From a bacterium (lineage in GTDB: Bacteria; Patescibacteriota; Minisyncoccia; Phycocordibacterales; VMGT01): 64,000 bases of DNA. A program made the position numbers and the translations under genes. This document shows, piece after piece, positions 32 to 61,373 of the stretch; position 1 is the stretch's first letter, and each line of letters opens with the position of its first letter. The notes beneath the pieces are model-generated. The model made no database searches. It had not been told where the DNA came from and saw only the letters and a program-made list of their open reading frames with translations. The stretch spans positions 12,136 through 76,135 of the forward strand of contig JAUYPI010000014.1 of the NCBI GenBank assembly GCA_030697645.1. Direction: 5' to 3'.

Positions 32-1219
32 CTACGCAGCCCTCAGAGAGAGCGACTCTCGGAGATACTGCGCCAGCTTACGCGCGATGAAAACATCGGT
101 CGCCTCGCGCGACTCGACGGTCATGCCGCCGATGTGCGGGACGATGAGGAGATTTTCGTGCATCTCGGCGTACTCGACGAGCGGGTGCTTTGAGAAGCCC
201 GCCGACTCGAACGAGAGCTCGTCGGCGAGCACGTCGGTTGCGTAGCCTGCGATCTTATTTTGCTTGAGCGCCGCGAGGAGCGCGCGCTCATTCACAATTT
301 TGCCGCGCGAGGTATTAATAAGATAAACGCTCGGCTTCATCAGCGCAAACTCGCGCTCGCCGAACATGCCTTCGGTCTCCGGAGTGAGATGCGCGTGGAT
401 GGAGACCGCGTCGCTCTCGCGAAGCAGCTCGTCAAAATCAACCTTTTCCGCTTTCGCCGTAAAGGCACCCGCACGAGGAGGGTCAGACCCTCCTCGGCAT
501 TGGCTGAGGAGGGTCTGACCCTCCTCAGCTTCCTCCTCGGCTTCGTCGGCTTGTCCGCCCCTGACGCCTGACGCTTTGTTACGCAATAGATCCTCAACCC
601 CGTTAGAGGCAGCCGCATAAAATGCAGCGTGGCCTCGAGCGCGGTCAACATCCGGTGTCTTCCCGAAAAACCGCGGCGACGACGCTCGAACGTACGGATC
701 AAAAAAAATAACGCGCATGCCGAAGCCCGCTGCCTGCCGCGCCATGATGCGGCCGAGGCGGCCGAGTCCCACGATCCCCAGTGTCTTACCCGAGAGCGAG
801 TGGCCGCGGAACGCCTCACGGTTCCACTCGTAGCGCCTCACCGACTCGAAAGCCCACGGCACTCGCCGCGCAAGATCAATCAGCATCCCAAACGCAAGCT
901 CCGCAGTACCGGTGATCGTATTCAAAAACTCCTCCTCGCCGCGAAGCGAGAGTACCTCGATGTCGCGCACGAGCGCGGCGTTGAGGTCAATGTGGTCGAG
1001 CCCCGTCGTCGCGGTTGCGATCACGCGCAGTTTCTCCGCACGCGCGAGCACGCGCGAGTCAAACGTAAGCCCGAGCCCAACAAGCGCCGCATCGTACTCG
1101 CCAATGACTTCCGCAAGCTCGCCCTGCGAGAGCGCGCGGTCGTCAAGGCACCCTACTCCCTCGAGTATCGCCCTCGCCTCGGGCGTCAGTACCTGCCCAA
1201 TAGTATTCAAAATGCGCAT
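32..1219 (-). CDS. D-isomer-specific 2-hydroxyacid dehydrogenase (PGDH-like) with an in-frame insertion of about 65 extra residues
   Basis: GxGxxG Rossmann motif (GIVGLGRLGR), catalytic region (SIHAHLTPET, PHIGG). The 395 aa length compares with about 306 aa for the paralog at 62449-63369, and the extra low-complexity segment maps to nt 442-691. Confidence 0.8.
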   Translation of the reverse strand: MRILNTIGQVLTPEARAILEGVGCLDDRALSQGELAEVIGEYDAALVGLGLTFDSRVLARAEKLRVIATATTGLDHIDLNAALVRDIEVLSLRGEEEFLNTITGTAELAFGMLIDLARRVPWAFESVRRYEWNREAFRGHSLSGKTLGIVGLGRLGRIMARQAAGFGMRVIFFDPYVRASSPRFFGKTPDVDRARGHAAFYAAASNGVEDLLRNKASGVRGGQADEAEEEAEEGQTLLSQCRGGSDPPRAGAFTAKAEKVDFDELLRESDAVSIHAHLTPETEGMFGEREFALMKPSVYLINTSRGKIVNERALLAALKQNKIAGYATDVLADELSFESAGFSKHPLVEYAEMHENLLIVPHIGGMTVESREATDVFIARKLAQYLRESLSLRAA

Positions 1220-29539: not shown

Positions 29540-32020
29540 ATGTCCATAATGACTCTAAAAAATAAATGGGTCGGCGCTAGTATCGGCGCGGTACTACTCG
29601 CAGGGGGCACGATGCTCCTCATAAAATTCGTCTTCCCCGAGCCGGTACGTCGCCCCATCGTCAATGAAGCGCGCGGCCTCTATGTCGCGCTCGAGCGCCT
29701 TACCGAAATACCTCAGAGTCTCACCGCGCGCCTCAAGCCGCTGCCTGTCCCCGCCTATCGCCTGGTCATAGACCCCGAGCACGAGCGCGAGCTCGACGAC
29801 TACTTCAGGATCCAGGAGGGCAACCTCGATCGCGAAAAAATCTACGTGCCTGCCGTCTTTTACGACCCCGACGGCCGCCGCTACGACGTGCGCGTCACCT
29901 ATCGGGGCGACGGCGGACAACATTTTCGTTTTCCACAAAAATCGTGGCGCATTGTTTTCCCGGACGAAAGTCTCTTCATGGGTAAAAAAGCGATCACCCT
30001 GATCTACCCTGAAGAGAGAGAGTTCCTCGTCGAGGCGACGAACTTCCACCGCGCAAAGAAACTCGGCCTCGCGGCGCCGGAAACCGGATTTGTCTACCTC
30101 TTCGTGAACCGCCATGAAGCTGGCCTCTACTATGAATTCGAACACTGGTCCGAAGAGTTACTCGAGCGCAACCGTCTTAAAACCGACGGAAATCTCTACG
30201 GTGAGCAGGGGCTCGGGAGCGAAGACCTCTACCGATCGACGAGCCACTGGCAGCAATACGTCGCAAACGCGCCGGGCGCGGAACATAAGGAAGATCTCGC
30301 GCTGCTCATCGCCATCCTCAACCACCCGTCGGATGAATACTTCAATCGCAACATAGACGACATACTCGATCTCGAAACGTTCTACCGATGGAATGTCCAC
30401 GCGCTCCTCTCCGGGAGCGAGCACCAAGACGCGATCCACAATGCCCGCCTCTACTTCGACCCGACGCTTGGAAAATTCAAATATATCCCCTGGGACGTCA
30501 ACATCGGCGATCTTGAGGCGCCGATAGAGTCGAGGGGTATCGACCCGAAAGACTACAATCCACTCGTGCTCCGCATCCTCGCCCACCAGCCGTTCCTCGA
30601 GAAGCGAAACAGGCTCCTGCGAGAGTACCTCGCCGACTCGGAAACGGTCGCGGACGATTTTCGGTACTACGATGAACTCTACCAAACGCTTCGTCCGGCG
30701 TTCTACCGCGATACTCTGAAAAATTACTCGAACCGCTTTTTTAGAGAGGAGGTGGCCCGCTACCGCGACATCCTCTCGCGCAACATCGCCTACCTCCAAG
30801 AGCACTACCTCGAGGCCGAACCCCCTCCCGCGGCTCCGGCAGAGCGAGAACGCCCGCTCGCCGAGCCAGACGGAGAGTATGCGCCTCCGGTGCCGACCGG
30901 AGATGCATTCACGTATTTTCACGACATCAGCCGTTCTCCGGAGGAATTCCTCGCCGCACACCCCAACTTCTCGAAAGATACCGCCGGAGAACTCCACCTC
31001 GGGCCCGGGAGCGTTGTACTCCGCGCCACGACGCTGGTGCCAGAAAACACACGCCTTCACATCGAGGCCGGAACCGATGTCTTCCTTGACGCTCATGCAT
31101 CTCTCGTGAGCTACAGTGCCATAGATGCCCGCGGCACAGCGGAGCGTCCGATACGCTTTCTACCGCTCAGCCCTACAGAGCCGTGGGGCACCCTTGCGAT
31201 CATCGACGCGCCGAACGAGAGCCGATTCGAGAACGTCTTCTTTCTCCATACTGCGAAACGCCCCGACCCCCCGCTCTCGCCGGATGAGCACCGCACGATC
31301 GCCGGACCTATTAACGGGATGCTGTTTCGCGGTATGGTCACGGTGCGCCACGCGGCGGTCTCGATCGCCGCAAGCACATTTGCGCACGCTGCGGGGGACG
31401 ATGCGCTCTCGGTCCAATACGGCAGCTTCGCAATAACCGATTCGCTGTTCCGAGATAATAGCGCGGATGCGTTTGACGCCGACTTTGCGAGCGGCACTAT
31501 CATGCGCACTGCCTTTCGCGACAGCGGCAACGACGGCGTTGACATTGACGGCACGAAGGCGCTCGTCGAGGACGTGGTCGTAACCCGCACGGGCGACAAA
31601 GGGTTTTCGCTCGGAGCAAGCACCGAGCTCGAGCTCAAGAACAGCGTTATCGATACGGCCGATATCGGCGTCGCGATCAAGGACGACAGCAGCGCGACAC
31701 TCACCCATGCTCTGATCGTTGGAGCGCGCATTGGGATCAATATCTATCACGATAATCCGATATTCCCGGCGGCAACCGCCACGGCGAAAGTCAGTGCCTC
31801 CGTAATCGCTCAAAGTACCGAGCGTACCATTTCTGTGCCACGCGACGCCCAGCTTGCCATGGACCGAAGCATCATTGAGGGCGGTTTCCCCGGCTCTGCC
31901 GAGGACGTCATAGACGTTACGCCGCGCTTTCGCAATGCGGCAGCTGGCGATTACCGCCTGCTTGATGCTCCAGGCGGAGAGACGATCGGGTTGAGGTATC
32001 TTCCGAGAGTACCGCGCTAA
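29540..32020 (+). CDS. Membrane-anchored CotH-family atypical kinase domain fused to a C-terminal right-handed beta-helix (pectate-lyase-like) domain
   Basis: N-terminal TM helix; CotH-like block (KSWRIVFP ... KKLGLAAPETGFVYLFVNRHEAGLYYEFEH); C-terminal Asn/Asp/Gly-rich beta-helix repeats. Confidence 0.65.
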   Translation: MSIMTLKNKWVGASIGAVLLAGGTMLLIKFVFPEPVRRPIVNEARGLYVALERLTEIPQSLTARLKPLPVPAYRLVIDPEHERELDDYFRIQEGNLDREKIYVPAVFYDPDGRRYDVRVTYRGDGGQHFRFPQKSWRIVFPDESLFMGKKAITLIYPEEREFLVEATNFHRAKKLGLAAPETGFVYLFVNRHEAGLYYEFEHWSEELLERNRLKTDGNLYGEQGLGSEDLYRSTSHWQQYVANAPGAEHKEDLALLIAILNHPSDEYFNRNIDDILDLETFYRWNVHALLSGSEHQDAIHNARLYFDPTLGKFKYIPWDVNIGDLEAPIESRGIDPKDYNPLVLRILAHQPFLEKRNRLLREYLADSETVADDFRYYDELYQTLRPAFYRDTLKNYSNRFFREEVARYRDILSRNIAYLQEHYLEAEPPPAAPAERERPLAEPDGEYAPPVPTGDAFTYFHDISRSPEEFLAAHPNFSKDTAGELHLGPGSVVLRATTLVPENTRLHIEAGTDVFLDAHASLVSYSAIDARGTAERPIRFLPLSPTEPWGTLAIIDAPNESRFENVFFLHTAKRPDPPLSPDEHRTIAGPINGMLFRGMVTVRHAAVSIAASTFAHAAGDDALSVQYGSFAITDSLFRDNSADAFDADFASGTIMRTAFRDSGNDGVDIDGTKALVEDVVVTRTGDKGFSLGASTELELKNSVIDTADIGVAIKDDSSATLTHALIVGARIGINIYHDNPIFPAATATAKVSASVIAQSTERTISVPRDAQLAMDRSIIEGGFPGSAEDVIDVTPRFRNAAAGDYRLLDAPGGETIGLRYLPRVPR

Positions 32021-32160
32021 ATTCCAAGCTCCAACCAACAATTTCCAAACAAAGCTCAAATTCCAATGCGCCAAATCTCAAACACGCCATTATCTGTGTT
32101 TGGAGCTTGGGGTTTGGATATTGTGATTTGTTTGGAGCTTGTTTCTTGGAATTTGAAAAT
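32019..32160. repeat. Palindromic intergenic repeat element, family 1, copy A (about 142 bp, imperfect inverted arms of about 65 bp)
   Basis: Left arm aaattccaagctccaaccaacaatttccaaacaaagctcaaattccaatgcgccaaatctcaaac is nearly identical to the copy at 44400; right arm ... gtttggagcttgtttcttggaatttg is its imperfect reverse complement. Confidence 0.85.
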
Positions 32161-32167
32161 TAATGCC

Positions 32168-36926: not shown

Positions 36927-37385
36927 TCAACCACGAATTTTGATTATCACGAGCCGCGCGGTGGCGGAAGCAACGTGCTGATGCGGCACGCCGGGCGGGA
37001 TCCAGAGCCAGTCGCCGGGGCGCAGGGCGTACGTCGTGCCATCCTCAATCCGCTCGCCAACAAGCTCGTCTGGATTGGACGAGCCGTCCTCCCGTGCTCG
37101 TTTGGTGGCACCGATAAGCTCCCCGTTGACGAGGAACGTCACCTCGCCCGCAAGACACTGCCAGAGATCCCCCTCGCGGCGGTGTATCTCCGGCGCATTT
37201 TCGACGGCGCTGTCTTCAAGGATGCCGAATGGCATCTCGGTCACACCAGCCGGAAGCGGCAGCATCCGCCTCCCCTGCTGCGGCTTTTCTCGAAGCAGCT
37301 CCAAGAGAGCGCTCTGTGAAAAATATCGTGCCTCAATCATGAAATGGTGCACTTCATACAACCGCAAAAAACAGGCACGCGTCAC
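36927..37385 (-). CDS. Cupin-domain protein
   Basis: C-terminal cupin motifs (GDWLWIPPGVPHQH). Confidence 0.5.
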   Translation of the reverse strand: MTRACFLRLYEVHHFMIEARYFSQSALLELLREKPQQGRRMLPLPAGVTEMPFGILEDSAVENAPEIHRREGDLWQCLAGEVTFLVNGELIGATKRAREDGSSNPDELVGERIEDGTTYALRPGDWLWIPPGVPHQHVASATARLVIIKIRG

Positions 37386-38389
37386 TCGTGGCTACGCTGC
37401 GGCAGTCGCACGATGGCGCCTGTCTCGAGCGACTCGCGGGCGGCAAGCGCGACGTCGAGGGTGGCGACGGCCTCGGAGAGCGGCACCTGCGATTCTTCTT
37501 CTCCGCGGATGACTCTCAAAAAATGTACGACTTCGTCGAGGTACATCTGATTTTTATCAAACGGCTCATCGAGGCCGACCCGGCGCGGGGACGCTGCACT
37601 CGTGCGGGAAAAAATGCTAGCGCAATTTGAAAAGTAGTCCCACTCGATCTGTCCCCCCGTGCCAACGAGAGAGAAATCGCGCCGCGGAGGACGCGCGAGA
37701 TAGTCCAAATGCAGCGCGCCGATGCAGCCGGATTCAAACTCAAGGAGGATGTCGGCCACGTCTTCAACGTCAATATCTAAATTGCTTTTGTGCCCGCCGA
37801 GGCAGTAGACGCTCCTCACGGCGCCAAAAAGCCACAGGGCGTAATCAATCTCATGGCTCAAAGTGAGGATCACGCCGCCGCCGAGCTCTCTCAGAGCGGC
37901 ATAACTGCTGCGGTAATCTTCATTTGGGTGCCAATCCGGCAGAAACTGACCGACACTGATGCGGGCGGCAATCGGATCTCCGACCTCGCGCTCATCCACC
38001 GCTTTTTTAATGGCACGAAGCAGTGGATGAAACCGCAGGTGATAACCGACGTATACACAGCGCTTCTTTGCCTCGGCCGCAGCAAAGATTTCCTCGACAT
38101 GCTCGGCCGATGCGGCAAGCGGCTTCTCCACAAATACATGACCGCCCTCCGCGAGCGCCGCGAGCGTATCCCGCGCATGAAATACAGTCGGGTTGGTAAT
38201 AAAAACCGCGTCCGGCCTTACAGAAAAACCGTCTTCGAGCGAGCGGACGCGTCGAACGCCGCACTCGATCTCCGCGCTCGCCACCCTCTCGCTCGTGCGA
38301 TACGCCACGAAATCTCTATAGCCGAGCGCATAGAGATTGCGCACATGCCGCTCGCCGATAGACCCAAGACCGAGAAATAAAAATCGCAT
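37382..38389 (-). CDS. Gfo/Idh/MocA family oxidoreductase
   Basis: LGLGSIGERH Rossmann motif, VFVEKPLA motif. Confidence 0.75.
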   Translation of the reverse strand: MRFLFLGLGSIGERHVRNLYALGYRDFVAYRTSERVASAEIECGVRRVRSLEDGFSVRPDAVFITNPTVFHARDTLAALAEGGHVFVEKPLAASAEHVEEIFAAAEAKKRCVYVGYHLRFHPLLRAIKKAVDEREVGDPIAARISVGQFLPDWHPNEDYRSSYAALRELGGGVILTLSHEIDYALWLFGAVRSVYCLGGHKSNLDIDVEDVADILLEFESGCIGALHLDYLARPPRRDFSLVGTGGQIEWDYFSNCASIFSRTSAASPRRVGLDEPFDKNQMYLDEVVHFLRVIRGEEESQVPLSEAVATLDVALAARESLETGAIVRLPQRSHE

Positions 38390-38404
38390 AAAGAGACCAC
38401 TCGC

Positions 38405-38600
38405 TTAAGCAAGTGCGCACACCTTTTATTTTTGTGCATTGCGAGAGGTGTTTAGGAAATGGCGAGCCGAGTAGAAAAATGCAGCTGTCTGAGGCCGACC
38501 AGGAGGGAGGCCGAGTTCTGCATTTTTCGTAGACGAGGCGACACCATTTCCAGACACTTCAAGCACGAGCACAAAAATAAAAGGTGTAAGCACTAAAATT
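38405..38600. repeat. Structured palindromic element, family 2, copy 1 (about 195 bp)
   Basis: Perfect 20-bp outer inverted repeat (acaccttttatttttgtgc / gcacaaaaataaaaggtgt) around the conserved core gcgagaggtgtttaggaaa...gaaaaatgcag...ctgcatttttc shared with 59778-59949. Confidence 0.85.
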
Positions 38601-38644
38601 GCTCAAACTCGATATTTTTGCTACAGTCATGAGAACTTTTAGAG

Positions 38645-39469
38645 ATGAAAAAGACACGACGCGCCAGCCCCATAGATAAACTTTTTAGTCTCTCCGGAAA
38701 GACCGCGGTCATTACCGGCGGCTGTGGCATGCTTGGCATCGAGTATGCGACCATACTCGCTGAGGCGGGCGCTCGTGTGGTCCTCCTTGATATGCTGCCT
38801 CCCCGCACCGTGCGTGCTCGGCTCGAAACACTGCCCGCCTCCATTCGCACACGCGTCGACGGGCGCTCGATAGACATTACCGACGAATCGCGCGTCAAAA
38901 AAACATTCAAGGATATTCTCAATAAATACCAGACAGTAGACATACTCGTCAACAACGCCGCTCTCACCGATTTTTCAGACAACGCAGATCGGTGGGCGGC
39001 GTATGAAAATTTTTCGCTCCCGCTCTGGAGCAAAGAGCTTGAAGTCAGCCTCACGGGCTCGTTTCTTTGTACCCGGGCGGTCATGCCGCAGATGAAAAAA
39101 GCCCGCTCCGGAGTTATCGTGAACATCTCTTCGATATACGGGCTCGCTGCACCGGACAATCGCATCTACAAGGAAGGCGTGTATCGGTCGCTCGCCTACG
39201 CCACGGCAAAGTCCGGCATCATGAACTTTACGCGCTCACTTGCCTCCTACCTCTCACCCCACGGCATCCGAGTCAACACGCTCTCGCTCGGCGGCGTCTT
39301 TGCCGACCACGACGAGGCGTTTGTGACAGCCTATGCGGCGCGCACCATGCTCGGGAGAATGGCGAGAAAAGAAGAGTATCGCGGGCCGCTGCTTTTTCTC
39401 TGCTCCGACGCATCGGCGTATATGACCGGGAGCAACCTGGTCGTTGACGGCGGGTGGACGGCGTGGTGA
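38645..39469 (+). CDS. Short-chain dehydrogenase/reductase (SDR) family oxidoreductase
   Basis: TGGCGMLG cofactor motif, YxxxK (YATAKSG), NNAA motif. Confidence 0.8.
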   Translation: MKKTRRASPIDKLFSLSGKTAVITGGCGMLGIEYATILAEAGARVVLLDMLPPRTVRARLETLPASIRTRVDGRSIDITDESRVKKTFKDILNKYQTVDILVNNAALTDFSDNADRWAAYENFSLPLWSKELEVSLTGSFLCTRAVMPQMKKARSGVIVNISSIYGLAAPDNRIYKEGVYRSLAYATAKSGIMNFTRSLASYLSPHGIRVNTLSLGGVFADHDEAFVTAYAARTMLGRMARKEEYRGPLLFLCSDASAYMTGSNLVVDGGWTAW

Positions 39470-39488
39470 GGATCCGCCCACGAAGAAT

Positions 39489-40355
39489 ATGACAAAACCA
39501 CAAAATCTTACAACAAAAATATTCTTAGACGGCGGTGACTCGAAGGAGACGAAAGAAATTATTACCCTGCTCGGATTCCTTGATGGGCAGACGACAAACC
39601 CAACGCTCATCGCGAAAAATCCCAACGCGCAGGAGCGACTTGCCAAGGGAGATACATTCACCGAGGAAGAAATATACGATTTTTACCACGGGGTGGTGAA
39701 GGAGATAGCAACCCTTGTGCCCGAGGGCTCGGTATCGGTTGAGGTATATGCCGACAAAAACACAGCCACCGATGAGATGTTTACACAGGGAAAAGAAATG
39801 TTTTCGTGGATTCCGAACGCACACATTAAGTACCCCACGACAGCGGCCGGACTTGCGGCGGCGAGGCGTTCCGTAGAGGTAAACATGCGAGTCAACATGA
39901 CGCTGGTTTTTACCCAAGAGCAGGCGGCGGCAGTGTATGTGGCGACACGCGGCGCGAAAAAAAGCGACGTATTCGTATCTCCGTTTGTCGGGCGGCTTGA
40001 CGACAGGGGAGAGAATGGCATGGATTTGATTAAAAATATCACGAAGATGTATAAAGCCGGTGACGAGCACGTGAAAGTCTTGGTCGCGAGTGTCCGAAAT
40101 ATGGACCATTTTCTTTACGCGATACAACTTGGCTCCGACATTATTACCGCCCCTTTCAAAATTCTCAAAGAATGGGGTGGACAAGGCATGCCGATTCCGA
40201 AAGACGATTTTATATACCCCGCCAAAGGACTAAAAGAAATTCCCTATCGAGAAATTAATCTGTCAAAGGACTGGAGAGAATTTGACCTTACCCACGAACT
40301 TACCGGAAGAGGCGTTGAACGTTTTGCCGACGATTGGAACGCGCTTATCCGGTAA
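39489..40355 (+). CDS. Transaldolase-family protein (fructose-6-phosphate aldolase / TalC-like)
   Basis: IFLDGGD ... TTNPTL signature; start assigned to MTKPQN. Confidence 0.7.
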   Translation: MTKPQNLTTKIFLDGGDSKETKEIITLLGFLDGQTTNPTLIAKNPNAQERLAKGDTFTEEEIYDFYHGVVKEIATLVPEGSVSVEVYADKNTATDEMFTQGKEMFSWIPNAHIKYPTTAAGLAAARRSVEVNMRVNMTLVFTQEQAAAVYVATRGAKKSDVFVSPFVGRLDDRGENGMDLIKNITKMYKAGDEHVKVLVASVRNMDHFLYAIQLGSDIITAPFKILKEWGGQGMPIPKDDFIYPAKGLKEIPYREINLSKDWREFDLTHELTGRGVERFADDWNALIR

Positions 40356-40518
40356 ATATACGCACCCAAATCAGATTTGCGAAAATATTTCCGCGAATGT
40401 CCTTATTTTAGGACGTTTGTTCCGGTAAATTTTGGCAAACCTGTGTCATTTTGGCATAAAGTGCGCCAGATTATAAAAACAAGAGCGCGGCCCAAAAAAT
40501 TTTCGCGAGAAGCCCATC

Positions 40519-41286
40519 ATGAAAAAAGACGCAAAAATACTTGTATTCATCCCCGCCCGCGGAGGGAGCAAAAGGGTGCAGGGGAAAAATACCCGCCCAT
40601 TTGCGGGGAAACCCCTGATCTCATACACGATTCGCATGGCAAAGACACTGAGGGGCGCTGATTTCCGAATCATCGTCTCGACCGAGGACGAGAAGATAGC
40701 GCAGGTGGCACGGCGCTTCGGGGCAGAAGTGCCTTTCTTGAGACCGCAGAGCCTCGCGCAGGATGACAGCCTCGTTGCCGACAGCGCGCTCCACCTCCTC
40801 GCAAGACTAAGACAAGACGAAGGGTATGTGCCGGATTACATCATGCACCTGCAGCCGCCCTCGCCTCTTGCGGAAGCAGAGGATGTATACCGGTGTATCG
40901 AAGCTCTCAGGCGCGATCAAAAAGCAGATGCGGCGCTCACGGTCTGCTCTACCCACCCGCTGCTCTACCGCTTAGGAGAAGGGAGCTATCTTGAGCTCGC
41001 CAATAAAAAAATAGCCGTTGATAAAAGGTTTATGCGGCGAGGCAGGATTACTGGTTTCCAAGGGCAAAAATTCCATCCCGCCTACAAACTCAACGGCTGC
41101 TTCGTCTATCTGGTCAAATACGCGGCGTTTGTACGAGAAAAAACCTTCCAACCAAAACGCACCCTCGCCGTCGTTGTTGACGCGTGGCGTTCCATAGACA
41201 TTGATACGCCGGATGATTTTGTACTCGCCGAAACGATTTATCGTAACCGACAAAAAATTCGACGCGCCCTTGCGTCATTTATATAA
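40519..41286 (+). CDS. Acylneuraminate cytidylyltransferase family, paralog 3
   Basis: ILVFIPARGGSKRVQGKNTRPFAGKPL motif. Confidence 0.8.
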   Translation: MKKDAKILVFIPARGGSKRVQGKNTRPFAGKPLISYTIRMAKTLRGADFRIIVSTEDEKIAQVARRFGAEVPFLRPQSLAQDDSLVADSALHLLARLRQDEGYVPDYIMHLQPPSPLAEAEDVYRCIEALRRDQKADAALTVCSTHPLLYRLGEGSYLELANKKIAVDKRFMRRGRITGFQGQKFHPAYKLNGCFVYLVKYAAFVREKTFQPKRTLAVVVDAWRSIDIDTPDDFVLAETIYRNRQKIRRALASFI

Positions 41287-41291
41287 AGGCA

Positions 41292-41516
41292 TCACAGGAG
41301 CGTTCGGAGCTCCTCGACGCTTACGTTTGCATCGCGCAGTATGCTTTTCAATGTTTTGGGGTGAAGTATGGTGCTGCCGTGAGCAGGAACCGTGGCGCGG
41401 CTGCCTGCTTTGTTGCGGTAGATCACGTGACTACCACTTTGGCGAGTAACAAAAAAGCCGCTCTTTTCAAGAACAGCCGAGATTTGTTTTGCAGTGAGAC
41501 GTGGAAGCCGGGGCAT
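41292..41516 (-). CDS. hicA: HicA-family toxin (mRNA interferase) of a type II toxin-antitoxin pair
   Basis: About 75 aa with KQISAVLEKSGFFVTRQSGSHVIYRN ... TVPAHGSTILHPKTLKSILRDA, the canonical HicA pattern including the catalytic His. The start could be 41558 if the upstream Met is used. Confidence 0.7.
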   Translation of the reverse strand: MPRLPRLTAKQISAVLEKSGFFVTRQSGSHVIYRNKAGSRATVPAHGSTILHPKTLKSILRDANVSVEELRTLL

Positions 41517-41541
41517 GGGTGACAGTCCTTGGCCACGCTCT

Positions 41542-41769
41542 CTACGCGGCAACAGCAACCGAGGCGACGCTCACCGAGCGCCCGGTGGGGATTATTTCTC
41601 GTTCTGCAGCACGATCGTCGAGGTGCAACTTTATGGCATCGCGTATGTTCTTCAGCGCTTCTTCGTATGTTTGTCCTTGGCTGTAGCACCCTTGTAATTC
41701 AGGGCAGGAAACGAAATATCCGTTTTTGTCTTGTTCTACGACGATGGCGAAGTGGTAGTAGTTTTTCAT
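41542..41769 (-). CDS. hicB: HicB-family antitoxin (RNase H-like fold partner of HicA)
   Basis: HFAIVVEQDKNGYFVSCPELQGCYSQGQTYEEALKNIRDAI matches the HicB/UPF0150 N-terminal domain and lies immediately upstream of hicA. Confidence 0.65.
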   Translation of the reverse strand: MKNYYHFAIVVEQDKNGYFVSCPELQGCYSQGQTYEEALKNIRDAIKLHLDDRAAEREIIPTGRSVSVASVAVAA

Positions 41770-41966
41770 GACTTAAGAGTAAACGACAACGGCTGGAAAA
41801 TCAAATCCCATGTTAAGAAATTCCAGCAAGAAAAGCATCCCTCCTGCGCGGGGCAGAGGGCTGCTGTTATCAGCGTAGACACAGAGAGGCCGTGGCGAAG
41901 CTGGTACGACTTTCGTACAGAGTTCTGCCACAGAATCCGCAGGAGAGTGTACCACGCTGCAGCCGC

Positions 41967-43127
41967 TTAGTCAACAAACTGTTTCTGTATCGGCACCGAT
42001 GCGAGGTTGAGGCTCTTTAAAATAGAGACGATGCGCTCGGCGGACTGGCCGTCGCCGTAGATATTCTTGACACGGCGGACTCTGCGGCGGAATCCCTCGT
42101 CCGTAAGCGCTGTGCGGATGGCGTGCTCGATTGCCGATGCGTCATGGGGAACGTCTATCACGTTTCCCGCTCTCTCTCTACCCTGCTGCCGCGAGCCGAT
42201 GTTGATTGTCGGCACGCGAAATGTCGCAGACTCGTGAATGCCGCTTGAAGAGTTGCCGACGAGTGCCGCGGCATGACGCAGCACGTTTGCGTAGTGCTCT
42301 GGAGACAGGCTCTTGAGACGTTTCAGCCGCGCGCCGCGCCTGATCCTCTTCACGATCGCTTCGGCCCCCGCATCGTTATTCGGATACAGAACGACCGCCT
42401 CGACGTTCGTTTTCGCTATAGCACGGAGTGTGATCTCGATCTGTTTTTCCGCATCGTGCATTTCCGTCGTTACCGGGTGCTGCACAACGAGGAGATATGG
42501 TGCCTGCGGGTCTACCCCCGCAATGCGGCATGTATCTTCTCGAGAGAGAATCGGGGCCGCGAGCAGCGCATCTATCGAAGGGCAGCCGACGGGGAAAATG
42601 AAACGCGGGTCCTCACCCATGCGCTTGAGACGCCGCGCAGCGCTCTTCGTTGCAGGAAAATGGATGTGCGCGAATTTACTCATCGCGTGCCGGAGCGATT
42701 CGTCAATGCTCCCCGTCACTTCACCGCCCTGGATATGCGCAACGGGGATGTTGAGATGCGCGCCGACGACCGCTGCGGCGAAATTGGCCCCAATATCAAA
42801 ACCGGTAAGCACAAGGTCGGGCTCGAGTTTTTCAAACAGGTCCGTAAGCGCGATCATCACGCGGCCGCAGCCGCGCGTCATGTGGCCACCGGTGTCGCGC
42901 ACCACCCGCTCCGGGAACATGGGAATCGTTGCGGCGATGTCGAACCCATCCTTTTTTATACTGTTGATATCTTCGCCGCGACTCTTTAAGAGCGATACTC
43001 CGGTGACAATAAGCCGGTACTCAAAAAAAGGGTCGCTCCGCAGGAGCGAGAGAATCGGCTTGAAGCGGGAGTAGTCCGCGCGGCGCTCGGAGACGAGCGC
43101 GACACGGAGCGGGCGTGTGGGGATCAT
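41967..43127 (-). CDS. UDP-N-acetylglucosamine 2-epimerase, hydrolysing type (NeuC/LegG-like)
   Basis: Two-domain GT-B-like epimerase with HIQGGE and NSSSG motifs typical of NeuC-family enzymes. Confidence 0.7.
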   Translation of the reverse strand: MIPTRPLRVALVSERRADYSRFKPILSLLRSDPFFEYRLIVTGVSLLKSRGEDINSIKKDGFDIAATIPMFPERVVRDTGGHMTRGCGRVMIALTDLFEKLEPDLVLTGFDIGANFAAAVVGAHLNIPVAHIQGGEVTGSIDESLRHAMSKFAHIHFPATKSAARRLKRMGEDPRFIFPVGCPSIDALLAAPILSREDTCRIAGVDPQAPYLLVVQHPVTTEMHDAEKQIEITLRAIAKTNVEAVVLYPNNDAGAEAIVKRIRRGARLKRLKSLSPEHYANVLRHAAALVGNSSSGIHESATFRVPTINIGSRQQGRERAGNVIDVPHDASAIEHAIRTALTDEGFRRRVRRVKNIYGDGQSAERIVSILKSLNLASVPIQKQFVD

Positions 43128-43184
43128 AACAAAAACTCAAAGTGTAAAATGCAAAGCGAAAAATAACAGTGCAAAAAGCAAAAC

Positions 43185-43325
43185 AAATTTCCAATTTCCA
43201 AAAAACCCGTCTCCAAACAAATCTCAAATTCCAATGCGTCAAATCTCAAACACGTACGTCGTGTTTGGAAATTGAAATTTGAATCATTTGTTTGAAGCTT
43301 GTTTTTTGGAATTTTGAATTTTGCT
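43185..43325. repeat. Palindromic intergenic repeat element, family 1, copy B
   Basis: ccaaacaaatctcaaattccaatgcgtcaaatctcaaacacgtacgtcgtgtttgga core. Its outer left arm is the reverse complement of the outer right arm of copy C. Confidence 0.85.
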
Positions 43326-43375
43326 GTGTTGTTTTGCAATTTTCGTTTTGCGATTTGCGCTTTATGTCATGTACG

Positions 43376-44392
43376 CTACCACCCAGCGCGGTCGAGGAGC
43401 GCCGAGATGTCGTCCTTCCCAAGCGGCGCCACGGCTCTCGTGAGGTATGTCTCCGAGGTACGCGGGAGAGCGCCAGCGTAGGTATACTGATCTGCGGCGA
43501 CGTCCGCAGTCGCTATCTGCGGGACGATGATAAAGTGGCGCTCAGTCTCAAGCGCGGTACGCGCCTCGTCCTCGGTGAGGAGCCCTTCGTGGATTTTCTC
43601 CCCCGGCCGAATCACTCCGTAGACCACGCGCGCTGGGGGGGAAGTGAAACGCTCTGCGCACACCTCCGCCAAATCCGCAATCTTGAGCGCGGGCATCTTC
43701 AGGACGAAAATGTCTCCGCCGCGCGCTCTCATCAGAGCCTCAAAGACGAGCTCGACCGCATCGGGTATCGTCATGAAAAACCGCGTCATATCCGGATGCG
43801 TTACCGTGAGCGCTCCAGCTCGCGCCTGCTCGTGAAAAAGCGGCAACACCGAGCCGACGGTACCGAGAACATTGCCAAACCGCACCGTCGTAAAAATTTT
43901 CCCTCTTTTCCCCTGAATGTAATGGGCTGCTGTTATGAGTCGTTCAGCGAGGAGCTTCGACGCCCCCATGGTGGAGGTCGGTGCCACTGCCTTATCGGTG
44001 GAGATCATCACCGTGTGCGTAATGGTCGGCGTGTTGAGCGCCGCACTGACCACATGCTGCGTACCGATAACATTGGTCTGCACCGCCTCGAATGGATTAT
44101 ACTCCCCCTGCGGCACATACTTAAACGCCGCCGCGTGGAAAATGATGTCCACATCCTCACACGCAGACATGAGGCGGTCCCGATCTCGAATATCGCCAAG
44201 GATATAGCGCAGACGACGATCTCGAGCGAACGCGTCCTCGACCTCAATCTGCTTAATGGCGTCGCGCGAGAAAATACGGACGACGGCAGGATCGAACGAC
44301 AGCAGTTGGTTCACAATCACGCGGCCGATCGAGCCGGTACCGCCGGTGACCAAAATCTTTTTACCGCGAATGAATGAAGCAGGGTCGGACAT
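43376..44392 (-). CDS. UDP-GlcNAc 4,6-dehydratase of the PseB/FlaA1/CapD (short form) family
   Basis: ILVTGGTGSIG, YGASK catalytic motif, overall FlaA1-like architecture. Start assigned to MSDPAS, because the longer ORF N-terminus is encoded by the repeat element. Confidence 0.75.
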   Translation of the reverse strand: MSDPASFIRGKKILVTGGTGSIGRVIVNQLLSFDPAVVRIFSRDAIKQIEVEDAFARDRRLRYILGDIRDRDRLMSACEDVDIIFHAAAFKYVPQGEYNPFEAVQTNVIGTQHVVSAALNTPTITHTVMISTDKAVAPTSTMGASKLLAERLITAAHYIQGKRGKIFTTVRFGNVLGTVGSVLPLFHEQARAGALTVTHPDMTRFFMTIPDAVELVFEALMRARGGDIFVLKMPALKIADLAEVCAERFTSPPARVVYGVIRPGEKIHEGLLTEDEARTALETERHFIIVPQIATADVAADQYTYAGALPRTSETYLTRAVAPLGKDDISALLDRAGW

Positions 44393-44399
44393 ATCGTAG

Positions 44400-44560
44400 A
44401 ATAAATTCCAAGCTCCAACCAACAATTTCCAAACAAACTTCAAATTCCAATGCGCCAAATCCCAAACTCTCACGTCGTGTTTAGTCCGCCAGCTGGCGGA
44501 TTGGATTTTGAATATTGTGATTTGTTTGGAGACGGGTTTTTTGGAATTTGGAAATTCGAG
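44400..44560. repeat. Palindromic intergenic repeat element, family 1, copy C
   Basis: Left arm nearly identical to copy A; right arm atttgtttggagacgggttttttggaatttgg is the reverse complement of copy B's left arm. Confidence 0.85.
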
Positions 44561-58655: not shown

Positions 58656-59723
58656 TTAATGAATTCTAGCGGCAAAATATTCTCCCATCCACTCTCTGAA
58701 TTGGCGATCGGGGCGGACGACGGTCTTAAACGTCTGCCCCACGCCACGCATCAATATCAACCCGAGATCTGACCCGACATTTTTTTTGTCCCTGCCGAGC
58801 GCGTCCATAAATGTATCGAAGTTACTGTCTCCCATGTCAAAACCCGCACAGACCTTCGAAAAAAATGCGCTGAGGTCTTCAAACAGCTCTTTTGAGATAA
58901 ACCCCAGCTTCATCGAGATGAAATTCGCCATGTCCATACCGAACACAACCCCTATGCCGTGCGGTATCTTGTGGTGGGTCACGCACTCAAGAGCATGTCC
59001 GAAGGAATGGCCGTAATTCAAAACCTGTCTTTCATTCCGGTCGAATTCGTCCAGTTCTATAATTTTTTTCTTAATCTCGAGACTCCTCTCAATAACTCCC
59101 CGCAGAGTCTCCCGATCGGTGAGTGCGCGAACATACTCACGAACAAAGCGTTCGTAATCCCGCTCTCCGGAGACAATATAGTAGTGCAGCATCTCACCTA
59201 GCCCTGATTTCATATCGCGCTCGGGCAGCGTGTCGAGCCACGTCATGTCAATAAAAATTTGGTGCGGCGGATAAAAATTGCCCACCTGATTTTTGTAGCG
59301 TCCAAAGTTAATCGCTGTTTTACTCCCAATACAGCTGTCGCCCATCGCAAGGAGCGTCGTCGGGAAAAACGACCACGCCACGCCTCGATAAAGAATGGAG
59401 GCTACAAAGGCCGTCACGTCCTGTGTAATACCCCCGCCAATCGCGACAAGACGGTTGTTTTTCCTGAAGCCATTCTCAATCAGGTGCTCAAGCACCGACA
59501 CGACCCCGAGATAACTCTTCTTCTCCTCGGTCGCGTCAAGGACAACGTGCCCGTGGCCGCGGACAAGAGCTCCGATCGTACGCTCGTACAGCTCGAGGAC
59601 ATTTTTATCAACGATCACAAAATCGCCCTCCGAGAGGCATGACGCGAGCGTAGTTGGTGCATCATCGACAAAAGCAGCCGTGTAATTATGGACCGAAGAT
59701 TTTACTGAAAAAGTATGCAGCAT
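58656..59723 (-). CDS. 3-dehydroquinate synthase-family sugar-phosphate cyclase (DHQS-like)
   Basis: GGGITQDVTAF glycine motif plus metal-binding His pairs (HSFGHALE ... HG) typical of DHQS/EEVS/DOIS enzymes. Confidence 0.65.
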   Translation of the reverse strand: MLHTFSVKSSVHNYTAAFVDDAPTTLASCLSEGDFVIVDKNVLELYERTIGALVRGHGHVVLDATEEKKSYLGVVSVLEHLIENGFRKNNRLVAIGGGITQDVTAFVASILYRGVAWSFFPTTLLAMGDSCIGSKTAINFGRYKNQVGNFYPPHQIFIDMTWLDTLPERDMKSGLGEMLHYYIVSGERDYERFVREYVRALTDRETLRGVIERSLEIKKKIIELDEFDRNERQVLNYGHSFGHALECVTHHKIPHGIGVVFGMDMANFISMKLGFISKELFEDLSAFFSKVCAGFDMGDSNFDTFMDALGRDKKNVGSDLGLILMRGVGQTFKTVVRPDRQFREWMGEYFAARIH

Positions 59724-59777
59724 ATCTAATCCCTGTAATTGTAATCACCCGCACGAAACACCAAACCTCTCGCCATA

Positions 59778-59949
59778 CCACCCACGTCTCATAATTTCGC
59801 GCATAGCGAGAGGTGTTTAGGAAACGCGAGCCTGAATAGAAAAACGCATCTGTTTCTGGCCCGCAGGCGAGTTATGCGTTTTTCGTCGCTGAGGCGACTA
59901 TCATTTCCAAACACCGAAGCTCGAGCGCGAAATTATGAGACGTGGGTGG
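59778..59949. repeat. Structured palindromic element, family 2, copy 2 (about 172 bp)
   Basis: Perfect 25-bp outer inverted repeat (ccacccacgtctcataatttcgcgc / gcgcgaaattatgagacgtgggtgg) around the same conserved core as 38405-38600. Confidence 0.85.
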
Positions 59950-59956
59950 TTACCCC

Positions 59957-60712
59957 CTATACACTCACAAACCCCCCGTCGACGATAATATTTTGCGCGG
60001 TGATGAAAGTGTTCAGATCGCTTGTTAAGAACAGCACGACTTTCGCTATCTCGTCTGGTTCTGCACAGCGCCGGAGTGGCACTTTTGCGAGAAGCGCATC
60101 GCGCTCGCGGGGATCAGCAAGCATCCGTTTTGTCATCTCTGTCGCCACGAAGCCGGGCGAAACTGCGTTTACAAGGATATTATACGGGGCAAGGTCAACT
60201 GCTGCGGCCTTGGTGAGGCCAATCAGCGCATTTTTAGACGTTATATACGAGACGCGCTTGTCGCGTGCGACAACGCCAAAAATGGACGCGACATTAACGA
60301 TGCGCCCGTATCCGTTTTTCTTCATCATGACGCTCGTCTCTTGTAGCAGCTGCAGGGGGCCAGTCACATTCACCTTCATCACGTTCTCGAAGTCCACTGT
60401 ACTCGTCTCGCCAATTGCCCCGACCTCATTGATACCGGCATTGTTCACCAATATATCAACGCGCCCGTAGCACTCCTCTACTTCCGTCACAAAAGAGTCA
60501 CACGAGCCGTCCTCGAGAAAATCCAGATGAAAGTAATTTGCTCGCCGCTCACGACGAAAAGTGAGACCCTGCGCGGCGCTCAGACGATCCAGGTCCGTGC
60601 CGGTGGCAATGACTTCTCCGCCAAGCGCCGCGAAATGCTCGGCAATACTTTTCCCGATGCCGCGCGTGCCGCCGGTCACAATAATTATCTTGCCGGTGAA
60701 ATCAAATTGCAT
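59957..60712 (-). CDS. Short-chain dehydrogenase/reductase (SDR) family oxidoreductase
   Basis: VTGGTRGIG, NNAG, YxxxK (YITSKNA) motifs. Confidence 0.8.
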   Translation of the reverse strand: MQFDFTGKIIIVTGGTRGIGKSIAEHFAALGGEVIATGTDLDRLSAAQGLTFRRERRANYFHLDFLEDGSCDSFVTEVEECYGRVDILVNNAGINEVGAIGETSTVDFENVMKVNVTGPLQLLQETSVMMKKNGYGRIVNVASIFGVVARDKRVSYITSKNALIGLTKAAAVDLAPYNILVNAVSPGFVATEMTKRMLADPRERDALLAKVPLRRCAEPDEIAKVVLFLTSDLNTFITAQNIIVDGGFVSV

Positions 60713-61373
60713 ACGGCATCCCTGTGGGGTGCGCGTGCGGCGCAAGCGAAACGGCCGCGCTACCCCCGAACTTCTGCTGTATCCAGCTTGTAAGCATGTG
60801 GTTCAAGATCAGGTGAACGTCCTCAACCGGCCCGTACTCGCCCTTCGGCGTCGCCACGACGATCGGCACATGGCAGAGGTCCTTCAGCTTCCCGCCGTCA
60901 AACCCGAGAAGTCCGAGGACCGTCCCCTGCCTCTCGCGCACCCACTCTGCTGCTCTCACCACATTCGGGGAATTGCCGCTCGCTGAGATCACGACGAGCA
61001 CGTCCCCGTCTCTGTAGTGTATCGCAAGCTGCTTCGTGAAGATGTCGTCATATCCGTAATCGTTGCCGACAGCGGTCATGGTTGACACATGATCCGTGAG
61101 CGGGAAAACCCGGTACGGCCGATTACGCTGCGCCACCTTCACCATCGCCATCCCGATGTCGTTCCCTATATGCGAGGCCGTTGACGCGGACCCGCCGTTT
61201 CCTGCCACGAACACCGTACTGTCGTGGACTCGCGCGTTTTCGAGTGTTTGCATAAACGCGCTGATCGCTCCCTGGTCAAGGGACTCAAGAAGCCCAGCGA
61301 GGTAGCGGAAATAACCACCGGCAAAGGCCTCGATGTTTTGACTCGCTAAAAATATTTTTTCCAGGTTATTCAT
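60702..61373 (-). CDS. SIS-domain sugar-phosphate isomerase (GmhA-like), paralog 2
   Basis: VAGNGGSASTASHIGNDIG SIS motif. Confidence 0.65.
   Translation of the reverse strand: MNNLEKIFLASQNIEAFAGGYFRYLAGLLESLDQGAISAFMQTLENARVHDSTVFVAGNGGSASTASHIGNDIGMAMVKVAQRNRPYRVFPLTDHVSTMTAVGNDYGYDDIFTKQLAIHYRDGDVLVVISASGNSPNVVRAAEWVRERQGTVLGLLGFDGGKLKDLCHVPIVVATPKGEYGPVEDVHLILNHMLTSWIQQKFGGSAAVSLAPHAHPTGMPYAI

Follow-up and report, generated by a model that had tools for sequence, protein, structure and literature searches.

The 64-kb window analysed here (the whole 64,000-nucleotide (nt) stretch of contig JAUYPI010000014.1, assembly GCA_030697645.1) is a large island for glycan and nonulosonic-acid biosynthesis. 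One contig of the metagenome-assembled genome (MAG) GCA_034376905.1, which we treat as the window's own MAG, is 99.99% identical to it, and the EF-Tu of this MAG and its relatives falls among Parcubacteria/Patescibacteria. Our subject is two intergenic palindromic elements of this island. Copy 1 takes up most of the 255-nt spacer between a Gfo/Idh/MocA gene (37382-38389, minus strand) and a divergent SDR gene (38645-39469, plus strand). Copy 2 lies 7 nt past the stop codon of an SDR gene (59957-60745, minus strand) and 54 nt ahead of the start of a dehydroquinate-synthase-like (DHQS-like) gene (58656-59723, minus strand). We favour the interpretation – at a probability of roughly 0.55 – that the two are members of a dispersed, non-coding, non-autonomous palindromic repeat family of groundwater Parcubacteria, MITE-like (MITE, miniature inverted-repeat transposable element) and of the Correia/ERIC kind, in which arm pairing is kept mainly at the DNA level.

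Both elements were found where the original prediction had placed them and belong to one family of ~180 nt (Table 1). They share the 19-mer GCGAGAGGTGTTTAGGAAA, which occurs exactly twice in the window against 0.03 occurrences expected. Consistent with the proposal that each is an imperfect palindrome, both sequences fold as one long imperfect hairpin, at −97.1 kcal/mol for copy 1 (z −13.2) and −93.5 kcal/mol for copy 2 (z −9.9), and 0 of 200 shuffles of either copy were as stable. A covariance model built from eight copies, R1, matches both over its full length.

Table 1. Features of the two window copies and positions of the sister-family copies. Coordinates are those of the window unless a contig is named.
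Feature	Position	Strand	Evidence or remark
Copy 1, complete element, single rod-like hairpin	38411..38595	+	R1 194.6 bits, E 1.9e-48, full length
Copy 1 5' flanking motif CCACTCGC, 7 nt before palindrome	38397..38404	+	7/8 complementary to GCGAGAGG at core start
Copy 1 outer stem, 5' arm, 26 nt	38412..38437	+	repeat finder; 92% complementary to 38569-38594
Copy 1 core start GCGAGAGGTGTTTAGGAAA, 5' strand of helices 2-3, bulged A	38441..38459	+	exact 19-mer common to copy 2 and eight metagenome copies
Copy 1 inner stem, 5' strand GAAAAATGCAG	38474..38484	+	helix 4 of consensus
Copy 1 variable apical stem-loop	38485..38517	+	folds as hairpin in every copy
Copy 1 inner stem, 3' strand CTGCATTTTTC	38518..38528	+	fold, consensus
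Copy 1 outer stem, 3' arm	38569..38594	+	repeat finder; helix 1 of consensus
Copy 2, complete element, core subtype B	59776..59951	+	R1 171 bits, E 2.6e-42, full length
Copy 2 5' flanking motif CCTCTCGC, 3 nt before palindrome	59766..59773	+	exact complement of core GCGAGAGG
Copy 2 outer stem, 5' arm, 26 nt, perfect	59777..59802	+	repeat finder, 100% complementary
Copy 2 inner stem, 5' strand GAAAAACGCAT	59839..59849	+	columns 72/134 and 76/130 altered on both sides vs copy 1
Copy 2 inner stem, 3' strand ATGCGTTTTTC	59874..59884	+	fold, consensus
Copy 2 outer stem, 3' arm	59925..59950	+	repeat finder
Sister-family copy	L027 5646-5820	−
Sister-family copy	L023 754-889
Sister-family copy	L023 9570-9744
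Sister-family copy	L023 18904-19039
Sister-family copy	L024 8778-8952
Sister-family copies	both ends of L011
Sister-family copy	L017 11400-11423		~200 nt left of window position 1

An exact-pattern scan of metagenome contigs with the 19-mer returned 10 loci that represent six further distinct copies, and two more (on L020 and L027; L-numbers denote contigs from the window's own MAG or related metagenomes) were reached by following flanking proteins into other contigs. Ten distinct copies are known. Four of them occupy unrelated loci on four contigs of the window's own MAG: copies 1 and 2, L020 5593-5779 (flanked by a response-regulator gene and a FIST gene), and L027 9372-9555 (between two genes that are both on the opposite strand). 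The others come from groundwater and subsurface metagenomes (Joint Genome Institute groundwater and subsurface samples, Hainich groundwater) of related Parcubacteria. All occupy short spacers between genes, and their orientation relative to these genes varies; the flanks of the metagenome copies have no nucleotide similarity to the window save ~20 nt upstream of the L010 copy: the 5' flank of copy 2 (CACCAAACCTCTC) also precedes that copy, at an unrelated locus. Elsewhere the searches were empty. Plasmid and phage collections (blastn) and viral contigs (exact pattern) yielded nothing, and the 19-mer scan of species-representative genomes gave a single chance match, in a coding region of a Thiodiazotropha MAG.

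The wider set of copies bears on a proposed association with SDR genes. Each window copy does have a neighbour of this kind (adh_short), as the original prediction held, but the gene at 58656-59723 is DHQS-like and the neighbours of other copies are unrelated, including FIST, HAD, mraZ, dnaN and TPR genes. Because other copies adjoin unrelated genes, the link to SDR genes is coincidental and there is no functional association.

Copies are 176-205 bp long, non-coding, and all fold as one rod, with an unbranched consensus. An outer stem of 26-27 bp is present in every copy; its termini approach AACCGCTCAC...GTGAGCGGTT, and its interior is free in sequence but paired, so that arm identity between copies ranges from 0.45 to 0.96. 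Inside it lies an asymmetric core that is conserved in sequence and contains a bulged A as well as internal loops, of the same polarity in all copies, then an 11-bp inner stem, and finally an apical hairpin that varies in length and sequence (copy 2 and L020 have a deletion here, and L006 carries a longer hairpin instead). The outer inverted repeats had been described as 20 bp in one copy and 25 bp in the other, and as completely different between the two. Neither description held. The repeat finder gives 26 nt in both copies, and the arms align column by column (56% identity) with invariant positions and with intermediates in the eight further copies; the outer repeats thus represent the element's own co-varying terminal stem and not unrelated flank. 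The compensatory change reported in the inner stem, from AAATGCAG/CTGCATTT to AAACGCAT/ATGCGTTT, was recovered as described, and another copy carries a third compensated variant, AAATACAG/CTGTATTT.

Upstream of the palindrome, at a distance of 3-8 nt, six of the 10 copies, among them the four of the window's own MAG, carry the motif CC(T/A)C(T/C)C. Scored within 22 nt upstream, it occurs in 6/10 copies as compared with ~2% of background 22-nt windows, with the caveat that CC[TA]C[TC]C was defined only after the data were seen. The motif, which most copies have as CC(T/A)CTCNC, is complementary to the GAGAGG at the core start. It may belong to the element, mark the target, or offer an alternative partner for pairing.

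Covariation was counted over nine full copies and the 67 pairs of their RNAalifold consensus, with 500 column shuffles and registers slid by 1-3 columns as controls. Standard pairs fill 94.2% of the cells, as compared with 84.9% in column shuffles and 34-51% in slid registers. Thirty of the 67 pairs have changed on both sides, versus 13.6±2.2 in shuffles (0 of 500 reach 30) and at most five in slid registers; 17 of these pairs are in the outer stem, six in the core helix and four in the inner stem. The inner stem, helix 4, comprises 11 pairs with 97% of cells paired. Substitutions among the copies preserve pairing well beyond the controls, and the part of the original prediction that rested on conserved pairing is upheld.

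The mismatches that do occur lack the bias toward wobble pairs. In the outer stem we counted six G:U, eight A:C and seven transversion-type mismatches, with no wobble excess on either strand, and the whole structure has 19 G:U versus 14 A:C with no strand-bias signal in wobble pairs. Two apparent signals are read as artefacts. A G:U excess in helix 3 arises from its 5' strand, which is all G/T and fixed by the 19-mer search. Better conservation of the 5' than the 3' half of the core was seen only among copies found with the 19-mer, and vanished in the unbiased pair of copy 2 and L020 (0.83 vs 0.90); we treat it as ascertainment bias.

A pair of copies upstream of the FIST gene, in the window's own MAG (L020) and in a relative (L004/L008), is informative about how pairing persists. 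They share position and orientation, and their flanking genes can be aligned. The outer arms of L020 and L004 are 0.67 identical, and the flanking genes show an identity of 0.60-0.69 at their four-fold degenerate sites. Of the 27 outer-stem pairs, nine differ (six transitions, three transversions), yet both stems are perfect. If the two copies stem from one insertion, independent neutral decay of the arms would break about one-third of the pairs in each; by our own estimate, the probability that none is broken is of the order of 1e-9, and therefore something would have to maintain pairing without slowing sequence change. Alternatively, because the two cores are of different subtypes, independent insertions at one target are suggested, in which case the perfection of the stems would reflect youth.

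Covariation in this family does not prove a functional RNA, because the mismatch spectrum looks neutral and the arms have diverged as far as four-fold degenerate sites. A DNA-level process with the expected properties is known. Template switching in quasi-palindromes is a documented route that creates and repairs stems and generates multi-base 'compensatory' changes, and it predicts neutral-rate turnover of arms without wobble bias, as seen here (PMC8794818). Being a mutational process and not an element family, it leaves the conserved asymmetric core and the spread to new loci unexplained.

These observations suggest the following model for a MITE-like repeat family. Copies would be spread by an enzyme that acts in trans and recognises either the termini or the folded hairpin, and arm complementarity would be kept mainly at the DNA level. 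Template switching within the palindrome, or correction of the hairpin, may copy one arm onto the other; a further route would be that only well-paired copies propagate. Many copies end 8-15 nt before a start codon (L003, L004, L020) or 4-7 nt after a stop codon (copy 2, L002) and must therefore be co-transcribed with their neighbours, and the transcript would form an RNA hairpin of ~85 bp. A perfect RNA duplex of at least 26 bp would be suited to processing of the RNase III type or to protecting 3' ends. Where a gene starts 8-15 nt after an element (L004 429, L020 5582, L005 1683), the short spacer contains no recognisable Shine-Dalgarno sequence: spacer and start codon read GCACCACT-ATG, GCGCCATCATCCCCC-ATG and ACCACACACAT-ATG, respectively. 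We infer that the RNA hairpin is a side effect and not the reason that pairing persists.

Consistent with mobility, site occupancy differs between relatives. At the site orthologous to that of copy 2, the relative L014 (DHQS-like protein 86% identical at the amino acid level) carries an unrelated ~155-bp palindrome (1618-1770) with a perfect 16-bp outer repeat, CTTTGAATAACGAAAT, and in the more distant relative L015 the SDR and DHQS-like genes overlap without an element. A site upstream of a HAD gene is filled in L005 and vacant in the window's own MAG (L027), whose copy is 600 nt downstream. The flanks at these sites are rearranged, and no exact empty site could be aligned. Arms and cores form mosaics, in that a cluster of similar arms (L020/L027/L010) is combined with core type B or A, and L004 joins B-like arms to an A-type core. 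One family copy is itself interrupted by a 106-nt nested MITE (L003 1193-1298, identical in L005 and L011), which has 14-bp terminal repeats (TGCCGTTACAAGTC/GACTTGTAACGGTA), a duplicated CGAG, and an insertion point directly after the core sequence ATGGCGAG. Small mobile elements are therefore active in these genomes.

A sister family of ~175-bp palindromic repeats, found only via covariance model R1 (41.7 bits), points in the same direction. It shares the rod architecture of the family described above and likewise combines a conserved core with a perfect outer stem, here of 18 bp, whose sequence differs between copies; it is also the more abundant of the two. In each of its four full copies TA stands on both flanks, the TA also extending the palindrome.

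The class of palindromic, non-autonomous intergenic repeats, to which the family belongs, has well-described members (reviewed in PMC2229807 and PMC10969869). Correia elements (CREE/NEMIS) of Neisseria are non-coding and ~105-157 bp long, with a directional conserved core enclosed by 26-bp terminal inverted repeats; they number over 100 copies between genes, often co-transcribed, the symmetric-ended hairpin is an RNase III substrate, and inverted-repeat sequence variants are known (PMC2649163). Our family resembles them as a small non-coding intergenic element with 26-bp ends and a directional core, but has no sequence similarity to them and occurs in another phylum. In Correia elements the repeat sequence is conserved, TA duplication is established and pairing is confined to the ends; here the arm interior varies, no TA duplication is established, and pairing runs through the whole element to form one rod. 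Identity with the Correia element proper can be rejected, as the sequences are unrelated (arms here AACCGCTCAC...) and the host is a Parcubacteria MAG. ERIC/IRU elements of enterobacteria and bcr1-type repeats of the Bacillus cereus group are imperfect palindromes of ~125-155 bp that occur in either orientation in transcribed intergenic regions, their secondary structure maintained by compensatory changes. They too lack sequence similarity to our family, which is distinguished by a longer perfect outer stem, a one-sided flanking motif and a small-genome Patescibacteria host. REP/BIME sequences with their RAYT transposases are comparable as dispersed intergenic palindromes that are recognised as hairpins rather than as linear sequence and whose stems vary between lineages with pairing kept; they make no target duplication, and none is established here. 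REPs are 20-40 nt long and clustered, however, in contrast to an element of ~180 nt with a conserved asymmetric core and no RAYT gene seen. The family is not a new kind of RNA.

Other identities were tried and rejected. Rfam 15 gave no match at gathering thresholds across the whole window, and at E <= 10 the two copies gave only chance-level matches (MIR821, 20.7 bits vs a threshold of 249; Pistol, 12.6 bits vs a threshold of 34.5), 6S being absent. A small protein was considered for type-A copies, in which the open reading frame (ORF) ATGGCGAGC... is preceded by AGGAAA; its ATG is missing in copy 2 and L020, and apical and 1-nt indels shift the frame. An intrinsic terminator is contradicted by the absence of a T run after the outer stem on either strand of copy 1 or copy 2, and a terminator scan returned only unrelated small hairpins; L027 has a hairpin of conventional terminator-like form, but as a separate structure after the element. 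No promoter consensus was found in or at the ends of copy 1, and −10 candidates read by hand in the A/T-rich middle of the arms were inconsistent between copies. TIGR arrays, which are Tas-associated, consist of tandem units with box C/D motifs, dual spacers and an adjoining tas gene (PMC12045711); the copies here are single and dispersed, lack a UGAUGA box C, and have no Nop-domain gene among their called neighbours.

Several observations weigh against a MITE-like repeat family. No clean empty site that would fix the exact ends and any target-site duplication was recovered; none was found for the FIST locus, where distant relatives (EF-Tu 89-90% identical) have no FIST or response-regulator genes. 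The ~320 kb of related sequence showed no autonomous partner, meaning a transposase gene bounded by matching termini, and the search for isolated termini was very noisy. Terminal sequences differ between copies, which is unusual for sequence-specific transposase binding, TA flanks both sides in just two of nine copies (L002 and L006) and the 3' side in 4/7, and the 5' motif has no role in the model. Copy 1 and L007, which differ in both genome and locus, have a 2-nt GC/AA mismatch of the outer stem in common, so that self-correction cannot always be fast. Lastly, the core is 0.79-0.98 identical between genomes, above four-fold degenerate sites – a figure biased by the eight of 10 copies that were found by exact 19-mer – and this could reflect selection on core sequence. 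That the family is a MITE in the strict sense is thus not proven, although size, terminal inverted repeats and dispersed copies fit. The original prediction had set a functional structure against an ordinary MITE. On this point pairing is kept beyond controls, as it expected, but dispersal in multiple copies, homologous termini and differing occupancy are MITE-like, and the wobble excess is missing.

Much of the same evidence could be read as host selection on a cis-acting RNA hairpin that would act in processing (by RNase III or otherwise), in stabilising 3' ends or in insulating cistrons, like the intercistronic RNase III sites of phage T7 or Correia elements. Covariation is strong in every helix, the outer stem stays at 26-27 bp despite its varying sequence, the asymmetric bulge and internal loops are conserved, and L020 and L004 are perfectly paired though a third of their pairs differ. 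Moreover, copies that abut start or stop codons must belong to mRNAs, and other palindromic families lie even between EF-Tu, S10 and L3. Such a hairpin is possible, if unlikely, given its mixed orientation relative to transcription, outer-stem mismatches without wobble preference, occupancy that varies between relatives, and decayed copies (outer-stem unpaired positions ~6 in L002, three in L006); the arms also change at about the neutral rate, faster than purifying selection on pairs predicts. Quite unlikely, in our view, is that the family represents a domesticated structured RNA module of Patescibacteria, in which the 26-27-bp duplex would be cleaved or bound in RNase III-type fashion, the core would be bound by protein, and the 5' CCUCUC would pair alternatively with GAGAGG. 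If it did, the module would set the boundaries of transcripts and govern how downstream genes without a Shine-Dalgarno sequence are translated in a minimal genome.

Spread as a single-stranded DNA hairpin, derived from IS200/IS605 or in the manner of REP/RAYT, inserting at CCTCTC via the internal GAGAGG without target duplication, would account for the 5' motif in 6/10 copies and its complementarity to the core start, for the lack of consistent flanking direct repeats, and for termini that conserve structure and not sequence. The L020 and L004 copies, alike in position and orientation and different in core subtype, would fit independent insertion at one motif. We nevertheless consider this mechanism improbable: four copies have no motif, the related sequence examined showed neither an HUH transposase nor a RAYT gene, and the TA flanks of the sister family (4/4 copies) point to a TA-duplicating mechanism. 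The geometry of IS608 also differs, with a target that abuts the left end and hairpins that are short and subterminal. A stand-alone ~180-nt rod-shaped non-coding RNA gene, with its own promoter on the element plus strand and possibly protein-binding at its internal loops, would agree with a directional core (bulged A and loops of one polarity in all copies) and a conserved 5' motif on one side only. Its size and rod shape are presumably 6S-like, a resemblance checked by Rfam search alone, with no 6S match. Such a gene seems highly improbable, as no Rfam family matched at E <= 10, upstream flanks share only a short C/T motif with no promoter-like sequence, no terminator follows the element, and several copies are just 8-22 nt from neighbouring start codons; a small genome that holds many copies, together with a sister family and insertions nested in copies, shows the behaviour of a repeat and not of an RNA gene. 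Barely credible is an attC-like recombination site marking gene cassettes in the island, despite structure that is more conserved than sequence, placement between genes of a variable polysaccharide cluster, and some copies that end AAC...GTT. Here the centre is conserved and the ends vary, whereas attC sites have conserved R''/R' ends (RYYYAAC...GTTRRRY) and a variable centre; the element measures ~180 bp as compared with 57-141 bp for attC, its gene orientation is mixed rather than fixed relative to cassettes, copies adjoin housekeeping genes too (EF-Tu region, mraZ, dnaN), and there is no integrase gene nearby.

Further palindromes occur in the window and its relatives. 'Family-1' palindromes, rich in CCAA/TTGG, lie at window positions 32018-32162, 43173-43334 and 44402-44556 and at L020 4105-4377 and 7772-7903. 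The second and third of these bracket an epimerase gene (~43376-44392) in inverted orientation, with 49-nt arms that are 90% complementary, an arrangement like that of a MITE-bracketed gene. A 24-bp hairpin of 96% complementarity with a 4-nt loop (GAGGAGGGTCAGACCCTCCTCGGC..., window 475-526) falls within the ORF 32-1219, of the 2-hydroxyacid dehydrogenase family. Mid-way in the glycan-biosynthesis island is a HicA/HicB toxin-antitoxin pair (41292-41769). L027 7752-8074 holds a tRNA-Leu(tag) and, ~255 nt further on, a 33-nt direct repeat of its 3' end and flank (GACTCCCTCCTTGCCCATGGATACGAAAAACCG); the pair, which lies a short way upstream of the HAD gene, resembles the attL/attR sites of a small remnant of an integrated element.

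In this lineage the ribosomal-protein operon EF-Tu/S10/L3...S19 is interrupted by long palindromes and by inserted PadR and NUDIX genes (L020 7772-7903 and 8309-8428; L023, L024). Its gaps measure 120-750 nt, as compared with 9-25 nt in more distant Parcubacteria (L021, L022), and other palindromic families occupy the EF-Tu/S10 and S10/L3 spacers. Public short-read assemblies of this organism break exactly at the palindromes: L013 corresponds to window 38420-43219, L016 starts and L018 ends in copy 2, and L010 ends in a copy. The repeats therefore fragment MAGs of the lineage and are probably under-represented in them.

A limited literature search found no description of such elements in Parcubacteria or Patescibacteria. 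Assembly breakpoints at the palindromes are predictable, which is useful when MAGs are binned and finished. Arms that change at about the neutral rate and stay perfectly complementary mean that covariation alone is insufficient as proof of a functional RNA, a point that matters for covariation-based genome scans. For the organisms themselves, the finding means that several families of long intergenic palindromes are present in the ultra-small genomes of Patescibacteria, and that such repeats extend even into the EF-Tu/S10 ribosomal operon.

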